From contig OZ024755.1 of NCBI GenBank assembly GCA_964016885.1, positions 31,992,001 to 32,056,000 of the forward strand: a DNA stretch of 64,000 nt. The letters run 5' to 3'. Below, piece by piece: positions 9,269-57,300 of the stretch. Made by a program: the position numbers and the translations under genes. Origin of the DNA: Eledone cirrhosa (taxonomy: Eukaryota). How positions within the stretch are numbered: the stretch's first letter is position 1; the number at the start of each line of letters is the position of its first letter. Under the pieces are notes generated by a model. The model ran no database searches and had not been told where the DNA came from. It saw nothing but the letters and a program-made list of their open reading frames with translations.

Positions 9269-9532
9269 GTGTCTCTGTCTTTCTGTCTGTGTACGTCACA
9301 CAAAACATTCCCTCGAGGTGTTTTTCCTCTATCCATTATTGATATACATAATTAGCGTAACTATTCTCCCCTGTGTCCTATATCTAAATTTGATCATTCA
9401 ACGTCAAACCAATTGAGGTGACTATGCATCATTGAGGATATATAATATGATCAATACATATGTTACTTTTACCAGTCAGCTAGCAGACAAGATCCACTCT
9501 TTACTGCATGTCCTCTCCTTTCCAAAAAACAA

Positions 9533-10742
9533 TTATGTGAGGTAAAGCCTTTACTGTGAAAATACCATAGTATATATTGAGTAATGTAAATGTTATGTGA
9601 GATATTATGTGAGGTAAAGCCTTTACTGTGAAAATACAATAGTATATATAGAGTAATGTAAATGTTATGTGAGATATTATGTAAGGTAAAGCCTTTACCA
9701 TGAACATACAATAGTAAATATAGAGCAATGTAAATGTTATGTGAGATATTATGTGAGGTAAAGCCTTTACTGTGAAAATACAATAGTATATATAGAGTAA
9801 TGTAAATGTTATGTGAGGTATTATGAGAGGTAAAGCCTTTACTGTGAAAATACAATAGTATATATAGAGTAATGTAAATGTTATGTGAGATATTATGTGA
9901 GGTAAAGCCTTTACTGTGAAAATAAAATAGTATATATAGAGTAATGTAAATGTTATGTGAGATATTATGTAAGGTAAAGCCTTTACTGTGAAAATATAAT
10001 AGTATATATAGAGTAATGTAAATGTTATGTGAGATATTATGTAAGGTAAAACCTTTACTGTGAAAATACAATAGTATATATAGAGTAATGTAAATGTTAT
10101 GTGAGATATTATGTAAGGTAAAGCCTTTACTGTGAAAATACAATAGTATATATAGAGTAATGTAAATGTTATGTGAGATATTATGTAAGGTAAAGCCTTT
10201 ACTGTGAAAATACAATAGTATATATAGAGTAATGTAAATGTTATGTGAGATATTATGTAAGGTAAAGCCTTTACCATGAACATACAATAGTAAATATAGA
10301 GTAATGTAAATGTTATGTGAGGTAAAGCCTTTACTGTGAAAATACAATAGTATATATAGAGTAATGTAAATGTTATGTGAGATATTATGTGAGGTAAAGC
10401 CTTTACTGTGAAAATAAAATAGTATATATAGAGTATGTAAATGTTATGTGAGATATTATGTGAGGTAAAGTCTTTACTGTGAAAATACAATAGTATATAT
10501 AGAGTAATGTAAATGTTATGTGAGATATTATGTGAGGTAAAGCCTTTACTGTGAAAATACAATAGTATATATAGAGTAATGTAAATGTTATGTGAGATAT
10601 TATGTGAGGTAAAGCCTTTACTGTGAAAATACAATAGTATATATAGAGTAATGTAAATGTTATGTGAGATATTATGTGAGGTAAAGCCTTTACTGTGAAA
10701 ATACAATAATATATATAGAGTAATGTGAATGGTAAATGGTTA
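9533..10742. repeat. 72-bp tandem repeat, about 16-17 copies, from one end of the TTAA MITE
   Basis: Unit GTAAAGCCTTTACTGTGAAAATACAATAG...TATTATGTGAG; array ends in the MITE terminus TAAATGG-TTAA. Confidence 0.93.
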
Positions 10743-11049
10743 ATTTCTTCTTTATATATACTCCAGTTCTACCAACTGTCGAGTGCTACTTATCTGATAT
10801 ATGCATAGTTTTATTGTTCTACAATATTAATCACCTCCTACATTACATATATATATGTGTGTGTGTTTGTGTGAACGAGTGCAAAATTTGTTTACTTACC
10901 GTGATTTATGGTTGGTAGAAAAATAAATGAATTATGTTTGTAAATCTTATCAATTATTTCACAGGGATGAATTTGGCATATTTAGAGAAGGAGTGTCTCC
11001 CTATATCACTCTGGAGCCAGCAAAAAAGACCCTGTTTATATTGTTGTGC

Positions 11050-13308: not shown

Positions 13309-13773
13309 TATCTATCTATATATATATCTATATATATATATGTCCTATAGCACATATATAAATATATATATATATATATACACACACATAATATAATATA
13401 TATTTATATATACACATAATATAACATATATATATATATATATATATGGAAATTACTGTGTACAGTGCTCAGGTGCACTACAATATGTATGTATGTGTGT
13501 GTGTGGGGGGGGGGAACATTTGATAAAGGAAGCAACCAACAGAGGACCATGTAAGTCTTCTTTCCCCACATATTCTTGGGAGGGTCCTTAGACATACCTT
13601 CCAGAATGTCCGATCTGAAGCAACTGTCTCCAATTGTAGGGTCAATAGGGTCTCACATGCTAAATATCTTGAATGGAAAAATTTGTTCACTTTTAGATTA
13701 TATCGTTATCATCATCATCATCATCATCATCATCATTATTATCATCATTGTAATCATCATCATATCAATTTAA

Positions 13774-15099
13774 CCCTTTACCATTTACATTACTCTATAT
13801 ATACTATTATATGTTCGCAGTAAAGGCTTTACCTCACATAATTATCTCACATAATATCGAATCTATGAGATTTTAGAATTATTTATTTTGAGAACAATAC
13901 CTTAACATCAGTATGAGCACCCAGTTACAGCCAGTTTGAACAGAAAGAGGTGAGATTTTGATATCACTCATTTTGAGAACAATACCTTAACATCAGTATG
14001 AGCAGCCAGTTACAGGCAGTTTGAACAGAAAGAAGTGAGATTTTAATATCACTCATTTTGAGAACAATACCTTAACATCAATATGAGCAGCCAGTTACAG
14101 CCAGTTTGAACAGAAAGAAGTGAGATTTTAATATCACTTATTTTGAGAACAATACCTTAACATCAGTATGAGCAGCCAGTTACAGCCAGTTTGAACAGAA
14201 AGAGGTGAGATTTTAATATCACTTATTTTGAGAACAATACCTTAACATCAGTATGAGCAGCCAGTTACAGCCAGTTTGAACAGAAAGAGGTGAGATTTTA
14301 ATATCACTTATTTTGAGAACAATACCTTAACATCAGTATGAGAAGCCAGTTACAGCCAGTTTGAACAGAAAGAGGTGAGATTTTAATATCACTTATTTTG
14401 AGAACAATACCTTAACATCAATATGAGCAGCCAGTTACAGCCAGTTTGAACAGAAAGAGGTGAGATTTTAATATCACTCATTTTGAGAACAATACCTTAA
14501 CATCAGTATGAGCAGCCAGTTACAGCCAGTTTGAACAGAAAGAGGTGAGATTTTAATATCACTTATTTTGAGAACAATACCTTAACATCAGTATGAGAAG
14601 CCAGTTACAGCCAGTTTGAACAGAAAGAGGTGAGATTTTAATATCACTTATTTTGAGAACAATACCTTAACATCAATATGAGCAGCCAGTTACAGCCAGT
14701 TTGAACAGAAAGAGGTGAGATTTTAACATCACTTATTTTGAGAACAATACCTTAACATCAGTATGAGCAGCCAGTTACAGCCAGTTTGAACAGAAAGAGG
14801 TGAGATTTTAATATCACTCATTTTGAGAACAATACCTTAACATCAGTATGAGCAGCCAGTTACAGCCAGTTTGAACAGAAAGAGGTGAGATTTTAATATC
14901 ACTCATTTTGAGAACAATACCTTAACATCAGTATGAGAAGCCAGTTACAGCCAGTTTGAACAGAAAGAGGTGAGATTTTAATATCACTTATTTTGAGAAC
15001 AATACCTTAACATCAGTATGAGCAGCCAGTTACAGCCAGTTTGAAAAGAAAGAGGTGAGAGAATTCTGGCTGGATACGGCCGGTTTTAATGCTAAAGGG
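13774..15099. mobile_element. piggyBac-like TTAA MITE expanded by an internal 85-bp tandem array (about 14 copies, 13886-15060)
   Basis: TTAA-CCCTTTA...TAAAGGG-TTAA; TTTTGAGAAC recurs every 85 bp. Other family copies near 1670, 5528, 27320, 32018, 33185, 34506, 48175, 49852, 53105, 53626, 58376. Confidence 0.88.
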
Positions 15100-45300: not shown

Positions 45301-48300
45301 TGCTGGTGCCATGTTAAATACACTGCAACAACCTCCTTAGTGCTGGTGCCATGTTAAATACACTGCAACAACCTCCCTAGTGCTGGTGCCATGTTAAATA
45401 CAGAACAACAAGCTCGCTAGTGCTGGTGCCATGTTAAATTCACAGCAACAAGCTCCCTAGTGCTGGTGCCATGTTAAATACACAGCAACAACCTCGTTAG
45501 TGCTGGTGCCATGTGAAATACACAGCAACAACCTCCCTAATGCTGGTGCCATGTTAAATACACAGCGACGACTTCCCTAGTGCTGGTGCCATGTTAAATA
45601 CACAGCAACAACCTCCCTAGTGCTGGTGCCATGTTAAATACAGAACAACAAGCTCGCTAGTGCTGGTGCCATGTTAAATACACTGCAACAACCTCCCTAG
45701 TGCTGGTGCCATGTTAAATACAGAACAACAAGCTCGCTAGTGCTGGTGCCATGTTAAATACACTGCAACAACCTCCCTAGTGCTGGTGCCATGTTAAATA
45801 CAGAACAACAACCTCCCTAGTGCTGGTGCCATGTTAAATACACAGCAACAACCTCCCTAGTGCTGGTGCCATGTTAAATACACTGCAACAACCTCCTTAG
45901 TGCTGGTGCCATGTTAAATTCACAGCAACAACCTCCCTAGTGCTGGTGTCATGTTAAATACCAGCAACAACCTCCCTAGTGCTGGTGCCATGTTCAATAC
46001 AGAGCAACAACCTCCCTAGTACTGGTGCCATGTTAAATACACAACGACGACTTCCCTAGTGCTGGTGCCATGTTAAATTCACAGCAACAAGCTCCCTAGT
46101 ACTGGTGCCATGTTAAATTTGCAGCAACAAGCTCCCTAGTGCTGGTACCATGTTAAATACACAGCAACAAGCTCCCTAGTGCTGGTGCCATGTTCAATAC
46201 ACAGCAACAAGCTCCCTAGTGCTGGTGCCATGTTAAATACACAGCAACAAGCTCCCTAGTGCTGGTGCCATGTTCAATACACAGCAACAACCTCCCTAGT
46301 GCTGGTGCCATGTTAAATTCACAGCAACAAGCTCCCTAGTGCTGGTGCCATGTTAAATACACAGCAACAAGCTCCCTAGTGTTGGTGCCATGTTAAATAC
46401 ACAGCAACAACCCCTCTAGTGCTGGTGCCATGTTAAATACACAGCAACAAGCTCCCTAGTGCTGGTGCCATGTTAAATACACAGCAACAAGCTCCCTAGT
46501 GCTGGTGCCATGTTAAATACACAGCAACAACCTCCCTAGTGCTGGTGCCATGTTAAATTCATAGCAACAAGCTCCCTTGTGCTGGGGCCATGTTAAATAC
46601 ACAGCACACACTGTTGAGTGCAGGAATGTATGCAAGTGAGATGAGATTTTCGCCATTATGAGAGATAAGTGGCTCCGATTTAGTACTGGCTTGGTCTCTG
46701 ACAACCCATCCAATTTTTGCTAGCAGGGAAAACATGATATTGGAGTGAACCAAGCATGTACAGCTAAATTTATTTTAATTAGATTACTTAAGTAAAAAAT
46801 ACTATTAACTATTATCCGATAAGTTTGCTTACTTTATTTCATGTAATGCTTCTAATATTGTCTTATTCTTGTGCATCTCATCTACAGTTCTGGTTTTCTA
46901 TCAGTCTGTACCATATCACTCCACACGTTTTCTATATTCTGATGTCAGGATAAAAAGCACTCGGTAGACATTGTGAAGTAGTAATTGTTAGGAAGGGCAT
47001 CTAGCCACAGGAACCATGCCAAAAATAGAATGTATGAGCAAGACGCAGTCATCTGAGATGTTGGACACGTTCGGCTTTGTTGTTATCGGAGAGTTCGTAG
47101 CCAATTTCTATACTTTTCCGAGCGTTTTGAGACAACGAATGATGGTCGAATGGTCCACATTGAAGTCTTCGGCCAACATTCTCGTTGTCAAGCTTTCTTC
47201 CTCTTCCACGGCTGCCAAAAGTGCCCGGTCGTTGAAATTTGATGGTCGACCTCTTCCTTCTTCATCTGCGAGGTTTGTATCGCCTGATTTGAACTTCCTG
47301 AACCATCTTTCAACTTGGCTTTTGCTGATTGTTCCTTCACCAAAAAGTTCATTGAGATCGCGAAATGACTGTGCTGGATTCCAACCTTTCTCGAAGTGGT
47401 AGAGCATAATATGACAAATGTGGATATGATTTCCGATACGTGTTCTGAAAAGAGAAAACCCCGACCGTCATTTAAAGATGTTTTTGTTAAATATTGTTAT
47501 TGTTTTTGTTAAATAAAATTTGTTGAAAAAAGGCCGCAATAATTATACACCAACCCAATATATATATATTTTGATATCTGATGGAGGCACATGGCTTAGT
47601 GGTTAGAGCATTGGCCTTGCAATCGAAAGGTTGTGAGTTCAATTCTCAGACTGGGTGATGTGTTGTTTCCTTGAGCAAGACACTTTATTTCACATTGCTC
47701 CAGTTTACTCAGCTGTAGAAATGAGATGATAGGGACTGGGGTCCCTATCATTCCACTGTAAAGTGGTCGTGGAGCTGCCACGGCAAAAAAGCACCCAGCA
47801 CTCACTGTAAATGAGGTTGGTGTTAGGAAGGGCATCCAGCTGTAGAAATTAAGCCAGAATCAGTTCCCGTCCCACCCTTGCAAGCAGGGAAAAGCGGACG
47901 TAAAATGAAATGATGATGATCTGAAGATATAAATTGAGATTACTGTTCTTTCTCTCTTCATTTCAGATAGTTGAGAAACTCGCTCCATATGTTTGTGCGG
48001 TGAAAACACACATTGATATTGTTTTAGATTTCAATATGGACTTTATCTCACAGCTTGTTAAACTATCGGAAGAATTTGATTTTATTTTATTTGAAGACAG
48101 GTATGAATTATATCATTTTAAGAATTTAACTGGAATTAATTTGAAATATATTATTTTTCTAGATAACTTGTTATTCACCCTTTAGCACTTAAACTGGCTG
48201 TATCCTGTCAGAACTCTGTAACTGGCCTCTCATAATGATGTTAAGGTAGTGTTTTCAAAATAAATAACATCAAAATCTCCTAGATTCGATATTATGTGCA

Positions 48301-51300
48301 GTAAAGTCTGTAGTGACTGAGATGGTCGCTTAGCAACTAGCAGTTGCCTCCCCTTAACAACTCTTCAGAGAGCGGAGGCAAGAGACATTCGGTCACAGAC
48401 GCGGACATGAACAGACGTGAAAGGATTCGCTCCTCAAAGAAATATTGACCATGCTGGCTTCGTGAGGGACTATGTGTAAATGCCCTCCTTTGGATCAAGG
48501 ACGCCATGTTATCTCGACTAATATGCACTCGCTTATTCTTTCGTTATTCCTGCACCGGAGAATATAATTACACTACTTCTATTAACCCACAAGGTATGTT
48601 TGAATTGATATTGTACATAATTTATTAAATGTCGCATTTAATAAAGGTTCGTTGATTTTTTACTGTTCACCCCCCTTCTGGAGTCATTTATTTCTACAAA
48701 GAGAAACGATGTATTGTCTATTCATCCACAATCATTCTTTTCCTTTATTGGTGACCCCGACGTGATTTGAACACGCAGCCTTCTGATATATAAGTCTTTA
48801 TTGTGAAAATATAATAGTAATTATAGAATAATGTAAATGCTGAAGGGTTAAAGTAACATAAAAATTTGATATAAAAAGGATATTAGACTATAACAATTTG
48901 TTAGATGGAGATAGTAGATTCAGATGAAAAGAAACTATTGTAATAAAGGTTTGTGATTTAGGGACAAGGCCAATAATTTGGGAACAGGGGGAAAGTTTAT
49001 TACATCGACACCAGTACATTACTGGTGCTTTGTCAACCCCATAAAGATGAAAGGCAAAGCTAGCCTCAGCGGGATTTGAACTCAGAGCATAAAGGGCCGT
49101 AACTCTATGCTGCAAAGTATGTACGACGCCCAACCAATCCTGCCAATCCACCGCCCTATTGTAATAATGACAAAGAGAAAGTGTGACCCAGTATATAGCA
49201 GGTAGTATAAGAATATTAGTGAATGTGGGTTTGTTTTTTGTATCATCATCATCATCATCATCCTTTTACGTCTGCTTTTCCCTGCTTGGACAATATTTCC
49301 TTGTGAAAAGTATTTTGTGGTCTGAACAAAGATAATCCGATTCTTAGTCCCATTTCTTTGTTAGATAGCCAGACTGGTTAATATAAATTCATTACACTCT
49401 AGAAGCTGTATCACCAACAATTGTGTCATAGCTAAAGGGTTATGGTATTGTTATCAAAATCTCATAGATTTGATATTATGTGAGATAAAGCCTTAACCAC
49501 AAAATACAATAGTAAACATAGAATAATGTAAATGCTAAAGGGTTAATATGAGAATGGCTGTCCTTTTGAATTTCTTTAAACAGAAACACTTAGATCTTCT
49601 TGAGTGAATGTTCAACTTCACATGGGAAGTTAATCTCCTTAGATCTTCTTGAGTGAATGTTCAACTTCACATGGGAAGTTAATCTCAAGAAGATATGTAA
49701 TTTTATTGGTAAATTACCAACACCCTAATGGCTTTCTTCCTTGGAGGATGGATTGCTGTTTTGATATTGTTCATAAGGATTAACCTCACAAAACTCACAG
49801 GTGACATCCTTCCAGATTGTGGTTTAAGAAAATGGATATATTTATCACTGTTTAACCCTTTAGCATTTACATTACTCTATATATACTATTGTATTTTCAC
49901 AGTAAAGGCTTTACCTCACATAATATTGAATCTATGAGATTGTGATATTATTTATTTTGAGAACAATACCTTAACATCAGTATAAATAGCCAGTTTGAAC
50001 AGAAAGAGGTGAGAGAATTGTGGCTGGATACGGCTGGTTTAAAAGCAAAAGGGCTAATGTCTATTTTCATGAGTTAGATGGTTTATTGCGTGCTGAAGCC
50101 CGACTGGACAGGTGATCATGTCCTCGAATGCTCCATTTTGGCTTGGTTTATGCAGATGGGTGCTCTTCTGTACACCATCCACTGGGAGCATTTTGTCGTG
50201 ACTCCAGCACTACCATTTTACAGGGTGGACTGGGAGCATTTTGTCTTGACTCCAGCACTACCATTTTACAGGGTGGACTAGGAGCATTTTGTCATGACTC
50301 CAGCACTACCATTTTACAGGGTGGGCTGGGAGCATTTTGTCATGACTCCAGCACTACCATTTTACAGGGTGGACTGGGAGCATTTTGTCATGACTCCAGC
50401 ACTACCATTTTACAGGGTGGACTGGGAGCATTTTGTCATGACTCCAGCACTACCATTTTACAGGGTGGGCTGGGAGCATTTTGTCATGACTCCAGCACTA
50501 CCATTTTACAGGGTGGACTGGGAGCATTTTGTCATGACTCCAGCACTACCATTTTACAGGGTGGACTGGGAGCATTTTGTCATGACTCCAGCACTACCAT
50601 TTTACAGGGTGGACTGGGAGCATTTTGTCATGACTCCAGCACTACCATTTTACAGGGTGTGCTGGGAGCATTTTGTCGTGACTCCAGCACTACCATTTTA
50701 CAGGGTGGGCTGGGAGCATTTTGTCATGACTCCAGCACTACCATTTTACAGGGTGTGCTGGGAGCATTTTGTCGTGACTCCAGCACTACCATTTTACAGG
50801 GTGGGCTGGGAGCATTTTGTCATGACTCCAGCACTACCATTTTACAGGGTGGACTGGGAGCATTTTGTCATGACTCCAGCACTACCATTTTACAGGGTGT
50901 GCTGGGAGCATTTTGTCATGACTCCAGCACTACCATTTTACATAGTGGGATGGGTGCTTTTCATTGTGGCACCATTACTACCATTTTACAGAGTCGACTG
51001 GGTGCATTTTATTATGGCACCACCCCTTCTTGAAAACTAGCTACACATGTGAACATAATTTTCCCATTTTAAAACAAAAGTTTTGAAATATTTATAATTT
51101 ATTCTAGAAAATTTTCAGACATTGGTGCTACTGTTTTTAATCAATATACTGGAGGTGTTTATCATATTTCCAATTGGGCTCACCTGGTAAATGCACATCC
51201 TGTACCTGGGGATGGAGTAATTAAAGGTATGAAAAAGGTAAGTAAAAAAAGCTACTTTCCAACTTATGCCACATCACATTTATCACAAAATAACTAATTT

Positions 51301-54300
51301 ACTAGATTGACTCAAAATAACTAATTTACTAGATTAACTCAAAATAACTAATTTACTAGATTGACTCAAAATAACTAATTTACTAGATTTACTCAAAATA
51401 ACTAATTTACTAGATTTACTCAAAATAACTAATTTACTAGATTTACTCAAAATAACTAATTTACTAGATTTACTCAAAATAACTAATTTACTAGATTTAC
51501 TCAAAATAACTAATTTACTAGATTTACTCAAACATGTTTTGGATTGTTTAGGACTTCTTGCATAGAAATCTATATACATATATTCTATGTATTGAAGTAA
51601 TACTAATAATAGTACTAGAAGTAATATTAGTAATAGCACTAGAAGTAATATTAGTAATAGCACTAGAAGTAATATTAGTAATAGTACTAGAAGTAATATT
51701 AGTAATAGTACTAGAAGTAATATTAGTAATAGTACTAGAAGTAATATTAGTAATAGTACTAGAAGTAATATTAGTAATAGTACTAGAAGTAATATTAGTA
51801 ATAGTACTAGAAGTAATATTAGTAATAGTACTAGAAGTAATATTAGTAATAGTACTAGAAGTAATATTAGTAATAGTACTAGAAGTAATATTAGTAATAG
51901 TATTACCAGTAATATTAGTAATAGTACTAGAAGTAATATTAGTAATAGTACTAGAAGTAATATTAGTAATAGTACTAGAAGTAATATTAGTAATAGCACT
52001 AGAAGTAATATTAGTAATAGTACTAGAAGTAATATTAGTAATAGTACTAGAAGTAATATTAGTAATAGTACTAGAAGTAATATTAGTAATAGCACTAGAA
52101 GTAATATTAGTAATAGTACTAGAAGTAATATTAGTAATAGTACTAGAAGTAATATTAGTAATAGTACTAGAAGTAATATTAGTAATAGTACTAGAAGTAA
52201 TATTAGTAATAGTACTAGAAGTAATATTAGTAATAGTACTAGAAGTAATATTAGTAATAGTACTAGAAGTAATATTAGTAATAGTACTAGAAGTAATATT
52301 AGTAATAGTACTAGAAGTAATATTAGTAATAGTACTAGAAGTAATATTAGTAATAGTACTAGAAGTAATATTAGTAATAGTACTAGAAGTAATATTAGTA
52401 ATAGTACTAGAAGTAATATTAGTAATAGCACTAGAAGTAATATTAGTAATAGCACTAGAAGTAATATTAGTAATAGCACTAGAAGTAATATTAGTAATAG
52501 TACTAGAAGTAATATTAGTAATAGTACTAGAAGTAATATTAGTAATAGTACTAGAAGTAATATTAGTAATAGTACTAGAAGTAATATTAGTAATAGTACT
52601 AGAAGTAATATTAGTAATAGTACTAGAAGTAATATTAGTAATAGTATTAGAAGTAAAATTAGTAATAGTACTAGAAGTAATATTAGTAATAGTACTAAAA
52701 TGCTAGAAGTAATAATAGCAATAGTATTACCAGTAATATTAGTAATAGTACTACCAGTAATATTAGCAATAGTACTAGAAGTAGAGCCAAGCTCATAGAT
52801 GTTATCCAACCATCTTGCTCGGGGTCTACCCTTGGGTCTCCTACCAGTTGGTTTCACTCGTAAAATCTGTCCAGCGATTCTTTCCTGAGACATTCTAACC
52901 ACATGTCCATTGTATCGGAGCTGTGATCTCTCAATTCGGAGAAGTAGCAGCTCTACCTGGAGTGTCTCTTTGATCGCCAAGCTACACACTCTATGGAGTA
53001 ATGTTACTCCAAAGACCCTTCAGAGGAACCCCATTTCGGGCGCTTGTATTTGTGATTTCTTAATTCACTCTTACAGGAAAAATCCCCTCACTGTCCCCTA
53101 AGCTTTAACCCTCTAGCATTCACATTACTCTATATATACTATTATATTTTCAAAGAAAAGGCTTTATCTCACATAATATCAAATCTATAAGATTTTGATA
53201 TTATTTATTTTGAGAACAATACATTAATGTCAGTATGAGCAGCCAGTTAAACCAGTTTTACAGCCAGGGTTAATTAATATTTCTCATTCTTCCAGTCTAA
53301 GATACTTGATGGTTTTGCTATATGTCATTTCATTTCAACATTTTCCTTTCTCTCTCTCAATTTCTATGTTATTGAATTATATTGATTACCTTTGATTTTC
53401 TTTGATTTTCACAGTCTGGACTGACTGACAAAAGGGCGTGTCTCCTTATAGCTGAAATGAGTTCAGCAGGTAGTTTAGCAACAGGAGTCTATACCGAAAG
53501 TAAGTTGGTTTTCTTTCAATTATTTTTCTTAACTATTAACATCCTGTACCACATCAAACCACATTAGCAAGACATTTGTTTGTGACGGGTACAAAACAGC
53601 ATTGTGACTGCATCACATTAAAAATTAACCCTTTAGAATTTAAACCAGCAATATCCAGCCAGAATTCTCTTACCTCTATCTGTTCAAACCGGCTATAACC
53701 GGCTGCTCATACTGACATTAATCGTTTAGCATTTAAGCCGGCCATATCCGGCCAGAATTCCCTCACCCCTTTCTGTTCAAACCGGCCATAACTATCCCCT
53801 CATACTGATGTTAAGGTATTGTTCTCAAAATAAATAATATCAAAATCTCATAGATTCGATATTATGTGAGGTAAAGTGTTTACCATGAAAATATAATAGT
53901 AAATATAGAGGAATCATCATCATCATCATCATCATCAACGTTTAACGTCCGTGTTCCACGCTTGCATGGGTTTGGACGGGGGTAGTCCCACTTGAGGCAA
54001 GAGTGATTGTCTTGCTCGCATAGGACTGTCTGGCAGGTTTTCTACAGTTGGATGCCCTTCCTAACACCAACCACATTTACAGTGTGGGGCTGGGAGGTTT
54101 TTACCGTGTTGCCTACACGGCCACATTACAGCGTGGACTGTGTGTTTTTTTGTCGTGACACCTACACGATCTCATTTGTTTCGGCCTGGATGGCGCGGCA
54201 CCAACATAACTTTACATAGAGCGGGGTGGTGTGGATGGGGTGGGGGTGGTGGGGGTGGGACGGGGTGTATTTTGTTAGAGATGCCTACTGGCTGGAGTAG

Positions 54301-57300
54301 GTTTTACTATATATTTAGGTAAGGCGGGTCTTCTCTGTTACTGAGTACCGCCAAAGGTCTCGGTCCAGTGACATTGTCTTGGAGAGGTGTAAGTGTGTGA
54401 TGTCGGAGTTTATCAGCTCGTCCCAGGTTTTTCTAGGTCTGCCTATTCTGTGACTACCGTCTATCTTTATTGCCCTGCACTTTGTTATAGGAATGTGTAT
54501 GCTAAAGGGTTTTGGTATTGTTCTCAAAATAAATAATATCAAAATCTTGTAGATTTGGTATCATGTGAAATAATTATGTAGATAAAGTGTTTACCATGTA
54601 AATACAATTGTAAATATAGAGTAATGTAAATGCTAAAGGGTTATGGTCTTTATCTTAGTTTACAGGAAATGTTCACAACAATCTGTCTACTAGTAAATAT
54701 ACTATAAACATTTGAATTAACAAACCTGTTTTTAGATATTTTCTACTAAATCATTACATAATATTAAGAGTTAATTGCTATATCTGCTCACCATAGGATA
54801 GTTGAACAAAGAATTCAATGTTTTTTTTCTTTTTGCAGGTACGATTAAAATGGCTGAGGAGCACAGTGATTTTGTAATAGGATTTATTTGTCAGAAAAAA
54901 CTAACTTCAGACCCAAAATTTATTCACATGACTCCAGGTAAGTAACAAATGCTAATAAGACTTTTTGTACTGCTGTTTGTTGTCTCCTTCAACTATATAT
55001 ATATATAGTGACGAAACATAAGTCAATTGCATGAACTCATAATCCTTTATTTACTGCTATATATATTTCGATGATAGCCATTGAATGGCTATGACCTCAT
55101 CAGGCAGTTAGTCAGTTCTTAGATATGCCAGCTCTGTGTGTATAGTGTTGATGGTATCAGAGCCTTGGGACATATGAGCTTGTTAGAAATATTTTGATGT
55201 TGTCAGCAGGAATAGTCTTGATGCTCATTGGTCATTTTGTAGATGGTAGTAGGTTGGTATTTGACCTCAAAGAGGCAGGTGGTTCTGTAGGGTTCAAACC
55301 ATCAGGCAAGATGACAATAGTTCCACATGACTGATTTTTATATATATATATATATAGACGGTAGCCACGGAATAGGCAGACCTAGAAAAACCTGGGATGA
55401 GCTGATAAGCTCCGACCTCACACACTTACACCTCTCCAAGACAATGTCACTGGACCGAGACCTTTGGCGGTACTCAGTAACAGAGAAGACCCGCCTTGCC
55501 AGTAGGCATCTCTAACAAAATACACCCCCCCCCCCCCGCCCCCCCCCCCCCCCCCATCCACACCACCCCCACCCCATCCACACCACCCCGTCCTATGTAA
55601 AGTTATGTTGGTGCCGCGCCATCCAGGCCGAAACAAATGAGATCGTGTAGGTGTCACGACAAAAAAACACACAGTCCACGCTGTAATGTGGCCGTGTAGG
55701 CAACACGGTAAAAACCTCCCAGTCCCACACTGTAAATGTGGTTGGTGTTAGGAAGGGCATCCAACTGTAGAAAACCTGCCAGACAGTCCTATGCGAGCAA
55801 GACAATCACTCTTGCCTCAAGTGGGAATACCCCCGTCCAAACCCATGCAAGCGTGGAACACGGACGTTAAACGTTGATGATGATGATGATATATATAACC
55901 CATGCTAGCATGGAAAAATGGATGTTGAACGGTGATAATGATGATATGTGTAATATATAGGAAAATAATTGTTTCTACTTTAGGCACAAGGCCAGCAATT
56001 ACCCAGTGCATTACTGGTACTTTGTTTTATCGACCCCGTAAGGATGAAAGCCAAAGTTAACCTTGGCGGGATTTGAACTCGGACCATAAAGGGACGTAAC
56101 TATGCTAGAAAGCCTGGCGTCCAACCCCCTACCGATACTGCCAATTCACCAAGGGTACAAACCGAAGCTGAAGCATATAGACAATATTCCCCCACCCCCT
56201 CACGCTGCAAAGTGGACGTGGAGGTGTGTCACGGCAAAAAAAGCACCCAGCCACACTGTAAGGTGGTCATGTAGGTGCCACGGTAAAAAAGCACCCAGCA
56301 CTCACTGTAGATGAGGTTGGTGTTAGGAAGGGCATCCAGCTGTAGAAATCAAGCCAGAATCAATTCCCGTATGAGCAAGACATGGTCAGCCGACCTAACA
56401 TTGCCCACAACAGGACCACCTGTCTAACCCATGCTAACGTGGAATAATGGACGTAGAACGGTGATGATGATGATGATGAATAAGGATTTTTAATTTTAGG
56501 CACAAGGCCAACAATTTGTGCAAATAGGAAAGTCTATTACATCTACCTCAGTATGTGACTGGTACTTTATTTTATTGACACCGGAAAGATAAAAGGCGAA
56601 GTTAACCATGGCTGGATTTGAACTCAGAATGTAAAGGGCTCTAATTAAATATTACAAATCATTTTGGCCAACAATGTAATGGTTCTGCCAATCTTCCATC
56701 TTTATATAGGAAAATTGTACTAAAATTCAGTAGTACTTCATGTATAATGAATATGTGCATACATAGATGCGCATGAAAGACGACAGCTGTATAAAAAAGT
56801 GCAGGGCTATCAAAATAGACAGTAGCCACGGAGTAGGCAGACCCAGAAAAACCTGGGACGACTTGATAAATTCCGACCTCACACACTTACACCTCTCCAA
56901 GATAATGTCACTGGACCGAGATCTTTGGCGCTACGCAGTAATACAGAAGACCCGCCTTGCCTAAGTGCAAAGCGAAACCTACAGTCAGTAGGCACCTCTT
57001 ACCAAAATACATCCCTGTCCCACTACTCCCACCCCATCCACACCACCCCCTTCGATGTAAAGTTATGTTGGTACCACAACATCCAGTCCTAAATAAATGA
57101 GGTCATGTAGGTGTCACGACGAAAAAACACACAGTCCACGCTGTAATGTGGCCGTGTAGGTAACACGGTAAAAACCTCCCAGTTCACACTGTAAACGTGT
57201 TTGGTGTTAAGAAGGGCATCCAGCCGTAGAAAACCCGCCAGACAGTCCTATACAAGCAAGACAACCAATCTTGCCTCAAGTGGGAAAATTCCCGTCCAAA

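Follow-up and report, generated by a model that had tools for sequence, protein, structure and literature searches.

A complete LTR followed by a 39-nt complement of mature tRNA-Trp was found as a single insert in the window (the whole stretch of 64,000 nucleotides that was analysed, located on contig C15 of the 3.0-Gb assembly in which the genome-wide searches were run). As judged from its sequence, this insert is very probably plus-strand strong-stop DNA that was over-extended past A58 of the primer tRNA and inserted as one piece. The features of the insert and its host site are as follows.

47967..48101, + strand: exon of the host OMP decarboxylase (UMP synthase-type) gene (Pfam PF00215, E 8.5e-7; GT next at 48102)
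48178..48847, no strand assigned: host MITE into which the insert falls, its ends CCCTTTAGCA...TGCTGAAGGG and its flanks of the TTAA type (from MITE copies)
48304..48308, + strand: left copy of the target-site duplication (AGTC at 48305-48308, or AAGTC at 48304-48308)
48309..48747, + strand: complete LTR, TGT...TTTA, 439 bp, of a CsRn1-like Ty3/Gypsy family (from genome-wide LTR matches)
48748, + strand: one-base spacer T (the same spacer is found in the 5' LTRs of the family)
48749..48787, - strand: copy of mature tRNA-Trp(CCA), positions 38-76 including CCA, 39 nt (A57 isodecoder)
48788..48792, + strand: filler ATATA (read from the sequence)
48793..48796, + strand: right copy of the target-site duplication (AGTC; AAGTC if begun at 48792)

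Host site of the insert

The insert is located in the intron after the OMP decarboxylase exon, in the same orientation as the gene, and the MITE which it interrupts is taken to be piggyBac-like. This had been described as a TTAA MITE, and its flanks are of the TTAA type with the exception that the left one reads TTCA. Intact MITE copies, used as a stand-in for the empty site, are collinear across the insertion site, in agreement with the earlier remark that the MITE resumes seamlessly, and the pentamer AAGCC/AAGTC is present in them once, so that the repeat flanking the insert is a duplication. The T of AAGTC had been pointed out as a departure from the usual AAGCC, and of the other MITE matches in the window, 17 in number, GCC is found in 14 and GTC in 1, with 14 of the 17 lying within one tandem array. 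The right side of the insert can be read as ATAT+AAGTC or as ATATA+AGTC, both ending at 48796. The proposed AAGTC duplication thus stood as a duplication; as to its length, AGTC preceded on the right by a filler of 5 nt fits no less well, the duplication length of the family being 4 bp (5/7 full-length elements and 6/7 solo-type LTRs).

Several other repeats were noted in the window. Tandem arrays at 9530-10745 and 13770-15020 (72-bp and 85-bp spacing) derive from internal parts of the host MITE, a 40-bp unit is repeated about 100 times between 42480 and about 46700, and the two arms of a 344-bp inverted repeat (53922-54265 and 55547-55890) are 98% complementary and 1.3 kb apart. A tRNA-like head at 47590-47653 (Rfam tRNA, 29.9 bits) belongs to a separate repeat, probably a SINE. 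No tRNA gene was found in the 64-kb window by ARAGORN, and the 39-nt tRNA piece was given no score by Rfam.

Anatomy of the insert

The LTR is preceded at 48309 by host DNA and not by the purine tract that stands before the LTR in the family. The insert therefore starts at the U3 edge and runs through U3-R-U5 into the complement of the CCA end of the primer, which is the anatomy of strong-stop DNA. To our knowledge, the only route to an LTR followed by tRNA sequence with its CCA is plus-strand synthesis that starts at the purine-tract primer, crosses U3-R-U5 and enters the attached primer. The 39 nt consist of TGG (for CCA) and the complement of positions 73-38 of the commonest genomic tRNA-Trp(CCA) gene (11 of the 30 loci read), and CCA is not encoded by the genomic tRNA-Trp(CCA) genes; the predicted complement from CCA76 to A38 was thus recovered by alignment to these genes. 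A normal primer-binding site is 18 nt or less in length, because RT stops at m1A58 of the primer tRNA. The tRNA complement of canonical strong-stop DNA accordingly has at most 18 nt and ends before A58, and the 39 nt at the locus exceed this length, which defines the insert as an over-extended variant.

Two other classes were compared with the insert. A solo LTR from LTR-LTR recombination does not describe it, for 45 nt separate the LTR end from the right AGTC and a copy of the primer site is present. TRIM/Helenus elements have two LTRs and a tRNA-like promoter inside the LTR (PMC10886601), whereas a single LTR was found here, with the tRNA copy outside the LTR and in the register of the primer site. 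The window copy of the family element is itself non-coding.

Source LTR family

The search with the LTR (48309-48747) gave 399 candidates, of which 40 were scored and 30 loci were returned. The two-LTR relatives were seven elements of 5.3-5.9 kb with LTR pairs 92-99% identical, and the LTR at the locus is about 96% identical to the nearest family copies. RT, RNase H and integrase were detected in Ty3/Gypsy order in the two full-length relatives scanned, so the family has the two direct LTRs around gag-pol and the RT-RNaseH-integrase order of Ty3/Gypsy elements, and the segment predicted to be an LTR is one. The tRNA-Trp primer-binding site, the 4-bp duplication and the Gag CX2HX9CX3C (CHCC) motif, intact in 2/7 full-length copies scanned (L061 and L067), match the description of the CsRn1 clade (PMC2582038), and the family is probably a CsRn1-like Ty3/Gypsy one. 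With PwRn1 and AgCR of this clade it also shares LTR ends other than ACA; it differs in the LTR end TTA against AAA/ATA (PMC2582038), the placement being by traits. Extended primer copies, which are present here, do not appear in the available text of PMC2582038. One full-length member (L061:578-6204) has a clean U3 end, a U5 end about 10 bp short and a long duplication of the host flank. A likeness between its left flank and that of the locus was considered and rejected as chance, the two being different host repeats.

Among the 29 other loci, a tRNA match of 20 nt or less followed by internal sequence was found in 12/12 other 5' LTRs, so the 39-nt insert is not the normal 5' end of the family. 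These short sites had been anticipated. They also bear on the alternative that the locus is a deletion derivative of a full-length element with a long primer site, whose internal region and 3' LTR were lost later, which is very improbable: inherited long primer sites do exist in three other families of this genome, but none of these uses this LTR, the breakpoint would have to fall exactly at the duplication, and the filler, although it ends in TA like the U5 end of the family, matches that end in two bases only. The core of the original prediction, integrated plus-strand strong-stop DNA extended into the tRNA, is therefore upheld by the anatomy, the identity of the LTR and the short sites of the family.

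Genome-wide copies of the tRNA-Trp complement

An exact pattern of CCA plus 21 nt was matched at 61 places genome-wide, and all of them were read; by downstream sequence, 34 are members of one amplified family (32-nt site), 3 belong to a second family and 24 are one-offs. With a CpG-tolerant 34-nt pattern (one mismatch allowed), 40 places were obtained and read, each carrying at least 33-34 nt of CCA-bearing tRNA-Trp complement and the locus being one of them. The count of long tRNA complements behind LTRs that had been proposed as a check thus placed the locus in a class. The reversed-pattern controls gave 0 hits genome-wide. Copies that have indels, or more than one non-CpG mismatch within the first 34 nt, escape these search patterns. 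The second family accounts for 4 of the 40 places, which were left out of the end and mismatch counts, and 36 one-offs remained. The junction of the locus was found nowhere else among the 61 exact or 40 tolerant matches.

LTR-end-like bases precede all 40 copies, 33 of which were put into multi-member clusters by their upstream sequence. An independent insertion of a tRNA retrocopy, or of a fragment of a tRNA gene, next to a solo LTR is scarcely conceivable at the locus: numerous as the tRNA-Trp genes and pseudogenes are, the invariable LTR-end-like bases speak against it, as do the CCA end exactly in primer-site register, one base past the LTR, and the single duplication that bounds both parts.

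In at least 12 of the 36 one-offs the sequence that follows is of retroelement origin, being an LTR (inverted or direct), part of gag or pol, or a fold-back. A short duplication at both ends was read in 9 of the 36, namely L150 (this locus), L186, L195, L192, L147, L148, L133, L134 and L140, the last three of which sit in uninformative TA repeats; these duplications were read partly by eye, and several LTR starts were set by eye or left unclassified. In the other one-offs a duplication is absent or the copy is unclassified, and most copies were thus not cleanly integrated. In one case (L145), the tRNA copy is 50 nt long and turns back on itself through the anticodon stem, so that LTR and tRNA together form a palindrome.

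Mismatches opposite modified bases

The tRNA-Trp genes and pseudogenes of the genome gave 60 matches, with A58 in all 60. About 45 tRNA-Trp matches, mostly of the A57 isodecoder, lie in a tandem array (G000:C4:353394883-353489292). In the C4 tRNA cluster a tRNA-Trp gene with U58 (L215) was noted, which thus cannot carry m1A58. The modifications m1A58, m1G37 and m2,2G26 were assigned to tRNA-Trp here by position, and tRNA-Trp is assumed to carry m1G37. Mutations and stops at m1A58, m1G37 and m2,2G26 are observed in tRNA sequencing (PMC5066629, PMC8062790); a text search of the main text of these two papers returned no mention of tRNA-Trp.

A wrong base stands opposite A58 in 7/36 one-offs against 12/827 at other fixed positions (Fisher p 4e-6), in line with the predicted read-through of m1A58 by RT, which thereby gains genome-wide support. 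The wrong bases are G (3), A (3) and C (1); the A mismatches could be accounted for by the U58 gene, and G and C alone still give p 0.003. Four of the seven belong to a single cluster of related LTRs and so are not fully independent; the wrong bases in these four are of three kinds. At the locus the base opposite A58 is correct, and no misincorporation mark was thus left there. Opposite G37, a wrong base was found in 3/8 copies reaching at least 48 nt against 1/104 at neighbouring positions (p 9e-4).

Ends of the tRNA copies

An RT stop before G37 corresponds to 39 nt and a stop before G26 to 50 nt. All the ends of the 36 one-offs fall at 33-42 or 48-52 nt, with none at 43-47 or beyond 52 nt; among the 35 copies of at least 34 nt, 6 end at 34-36, 21 at 37-42, 0 at 43-47, 8 at 48-52 and 0 beyond. 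Of these 35 ends, 31 lie no more than 3 nt from the stop before G37 or the one before G26 (p 8e-5 against a constant hazard, with windows set after the ends had been seen). The first cluster (37-42 nt) takes 21 of the 29 copies at risk, and 7 of these 21 reach 41-42 nt, passing G37 with the correct base, an excess over what random extension would yield if 39 nt were a hard stop (p 0.002). The first stop is therefore a zone (tRNA positions 35-40) and not base 37 exactly. The five copies that end at exactly 39 nt, the locus included, all continue with A or G, the same bases as in the misincorporations, so the true end at the locus may be at 39-41 nt. The base after the 39 nt at the locus is A, where G37 would give C, and the first A of the filler ATATA may be a wrong base put opposite G37. 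Taken together, the mismatches and ends fit an RT that would have gone past m1A58 and stalled near positions 37 and 26. The proposed stall at m1G37 is thus retained as a probable barrier near G37, indirectly supported by the mismatches and the clustering of ends, and not as an exact stop at base 37, the ends being spread over 37-42 nt.

The same intermediate could also have formed on a primer consisting of a 3' tRNA half, cleaved within the anticodon loop (or cleaved after priming), at the end of which RT fell off at positions 35-40 with no modification block. This may hold for some copies, and the spread of ends over 37-42 nt, three unrelated LTRs that end exactly at 42 nt and the ends lying correctly past G37 are on its side. 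It leaves unexplained the wrong bases opposite G37 in the longer copies and the second cluster at 48-52 nt, and the A or G that follows all five 39-nt ends, as misincorporations do, also counts against it; for the locus it is rather unlikely. That a block by m1G37 caused the RT stop at the locus is somewhat more likely than not.

Joining of the right end

The originally predicted repair of the right end by end joining is weakened, for the insert as a whole reads TGT...ATA and is bounded by an exact 4-bp duplication, as two-ended integration would give. Besides this, ATA is a natural terminus among CsRn1-like elements (PMC2582038), and in five copies (L186, L195, L192, L133 and L140, the last two in TA repeats and the set read partly by eye) a U5 end was rebuilt after the tRNA copy and is followed by a 4-bp repeat. 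On these grounds the balance leans slightly towards the tRNA end having been joined by the same integrase. One-ended integration or break capture, in which integrase joined the U3 end only (or neither) and host end joining attached the tRNA end, adding the AT filler in the process, differs in this last step only and is possible, if on the doubtful side. The filler looks untemplated, the duplication can be read as 5 bp, templated fillers occur in the sister copies L148 and L188, and the full-length L061 combines a clean U3 end with a shortened U5 end and a long flank duplication, all of which agree with it; the exact 4-bp repeat, normal for the family, and the ATA terminus do not.

Families with inherited long primer sites

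The 34 exact matches of the amplified 32-nt-site family (L033-L096, together with L207) share one internal region, and a two-LTR, pol-coding copy is included in the family. A pattern with a wrong base at position 58 was matched at 160 places genome-wide, of which 30 loci were read. Most of these 30 belong to a non-coding family (L155-L184, L209 and L211) with a 32-nt tRNA copy carrying A opposite position 58 and with a repeated LTR end plus an older primer site; the family is a young two-LTR one, and two of its copies, about 2 kb long, have LTRs 99.7-100% identical.

In the second family named above, the protein-coding one of L203 (L218-L247, L141, L143 and L152), the primer site is a decayed 37-nt tRNA-Trp tract, found at 29 of the 30 loci read, which retains the first 11 nt and a part matching the variable loop and the anticodon stem. 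Four near-perfect 40-nt copies are scattered in this family (3 changes on a poorly resolved tree of 33 copies) and were grouped in one clade in 0/200 bootstrap trees, which suggests repeated re-copying from the primer, in an extended form of the lentiviral over-extension sequence. That these four are a family with a fixed 40-nt site was dropped, given the decayed form at 29/30 loci. Endpoints close to tRNA position 45, which is the base of the anticodon stem, were also seen in two families and several one-offs.

Discussion

In the proposed origin of the insert, purine-tract-primed synthesis would have copied U3-R-U5 and then the primer tRNA, on a molecule in which m1A58 was absent or was read correctly, and RT would have stopped at, or at most 2 bases from, G37 in the anticodon loop. 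The 21 extra bases would have been unpairable with a primer site of 18-20 nt, so that normal strand transfer failed. The LTR would then have become double-stranded and its U3 end would have been joined by integrase; the tRNA end would have gained ATATA, giving a makeshift TA end on which the same integrase most likely acted. Most likely the insert has no function and is the fossil of a dead end.

The intermediate itself is known. A minor strong-stop product of HIV RT ends at base 37 and is unable to serve in transfer (PMC13191261, a review), and over-extended HIV-1 strong-stop DNA has products ending at Psi55, m5Um54 and ms2t6A37 (PMC13191261; PMC8599865). The likeness to the copies described here lies in an RT that reads beyond A58 and halts at base 37 carrying a modification (predicted here), with strand transfer that cannot be completed; the HIV-1 product, however, is a minor one from in vitro and cell-culture work that is said not to integrate, whereas the DNA here is chromosomal and of Ty3/Gypsy origin, with tRNA-Trp as the primer, a second stop near position 26 and misincorporation marks. 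In yeast, dead-end strong-stop DNA with tRNA sequence attached builds up inside Ty3 particles (PMC5371799), and that of Ty1 and Ty3 is likewise LTR plus tRNA complement, displaced and, for Ty3/Gypsy, found in the particles; the tRNA part of the yeast product is only 12 nt long and its primer sequence is not passed on, in contrast to 39 integrated nt here (PMC5371799). The sequence after the lentiviral primer site permits transfer of over-extended DNA (PMC13191261), and the long tracts of three other families here resemble it, although the family of the window has none; the lentiviral sequence serves products ending at 54-55, whereas the tracts here reach position 45 or 37 (PMC13191261). HIV 2-LTR junctions with primer-site or tRNA inserts also represent aberrant cDNA ends with primer-derived sequence, but they lie on unintegrated circles, and anticodon-loop stops are absent from them as described in the available text of PMC5618025.

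Genomic fossils of over-extended strong-stop DNA were not found in the open-access literature (listings and abstracts), and chromosomal fixation with modification marks is, within the same scope, not found there. Parts of the finding may be anticipated by older work, which reportedly covers the capture of Ty1 cDNA at breaks, tRNA sequence in retroviral circle junctions, one-ended integration and a strong-stop model of SINE origin.

It is tentatively proposed, as a reading slightly less likely than not, that the assembly holds a tRNA-seq record written by the retrotransposons of the host and still readable (m1A58, m1G37 and modified G26 of tRNA-Trp in germ cells), and that read-through would be so common that a coding family would keep a distal tRNA-complementary tract down to base 37 that rescues over-extended DNA and was re-copied several times independently. 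Strong-stop DNA past the T-loop is treated in reviews as unable to integrate, whereas the copies here show it lodged in animal chromosomes, in some cases with the footprint expected of integrase, and able to give rise to amplified families. Taken singly the locus is inert, and its value is that of the class. The copies give an in vivo measure of the behaviour of Ty3/Gypsy RT at modified bases, and the positions of their mismatches and ends predict, from DNA alone and in a form open to test, which tRNA sites are modified in species without tRNA-seq.
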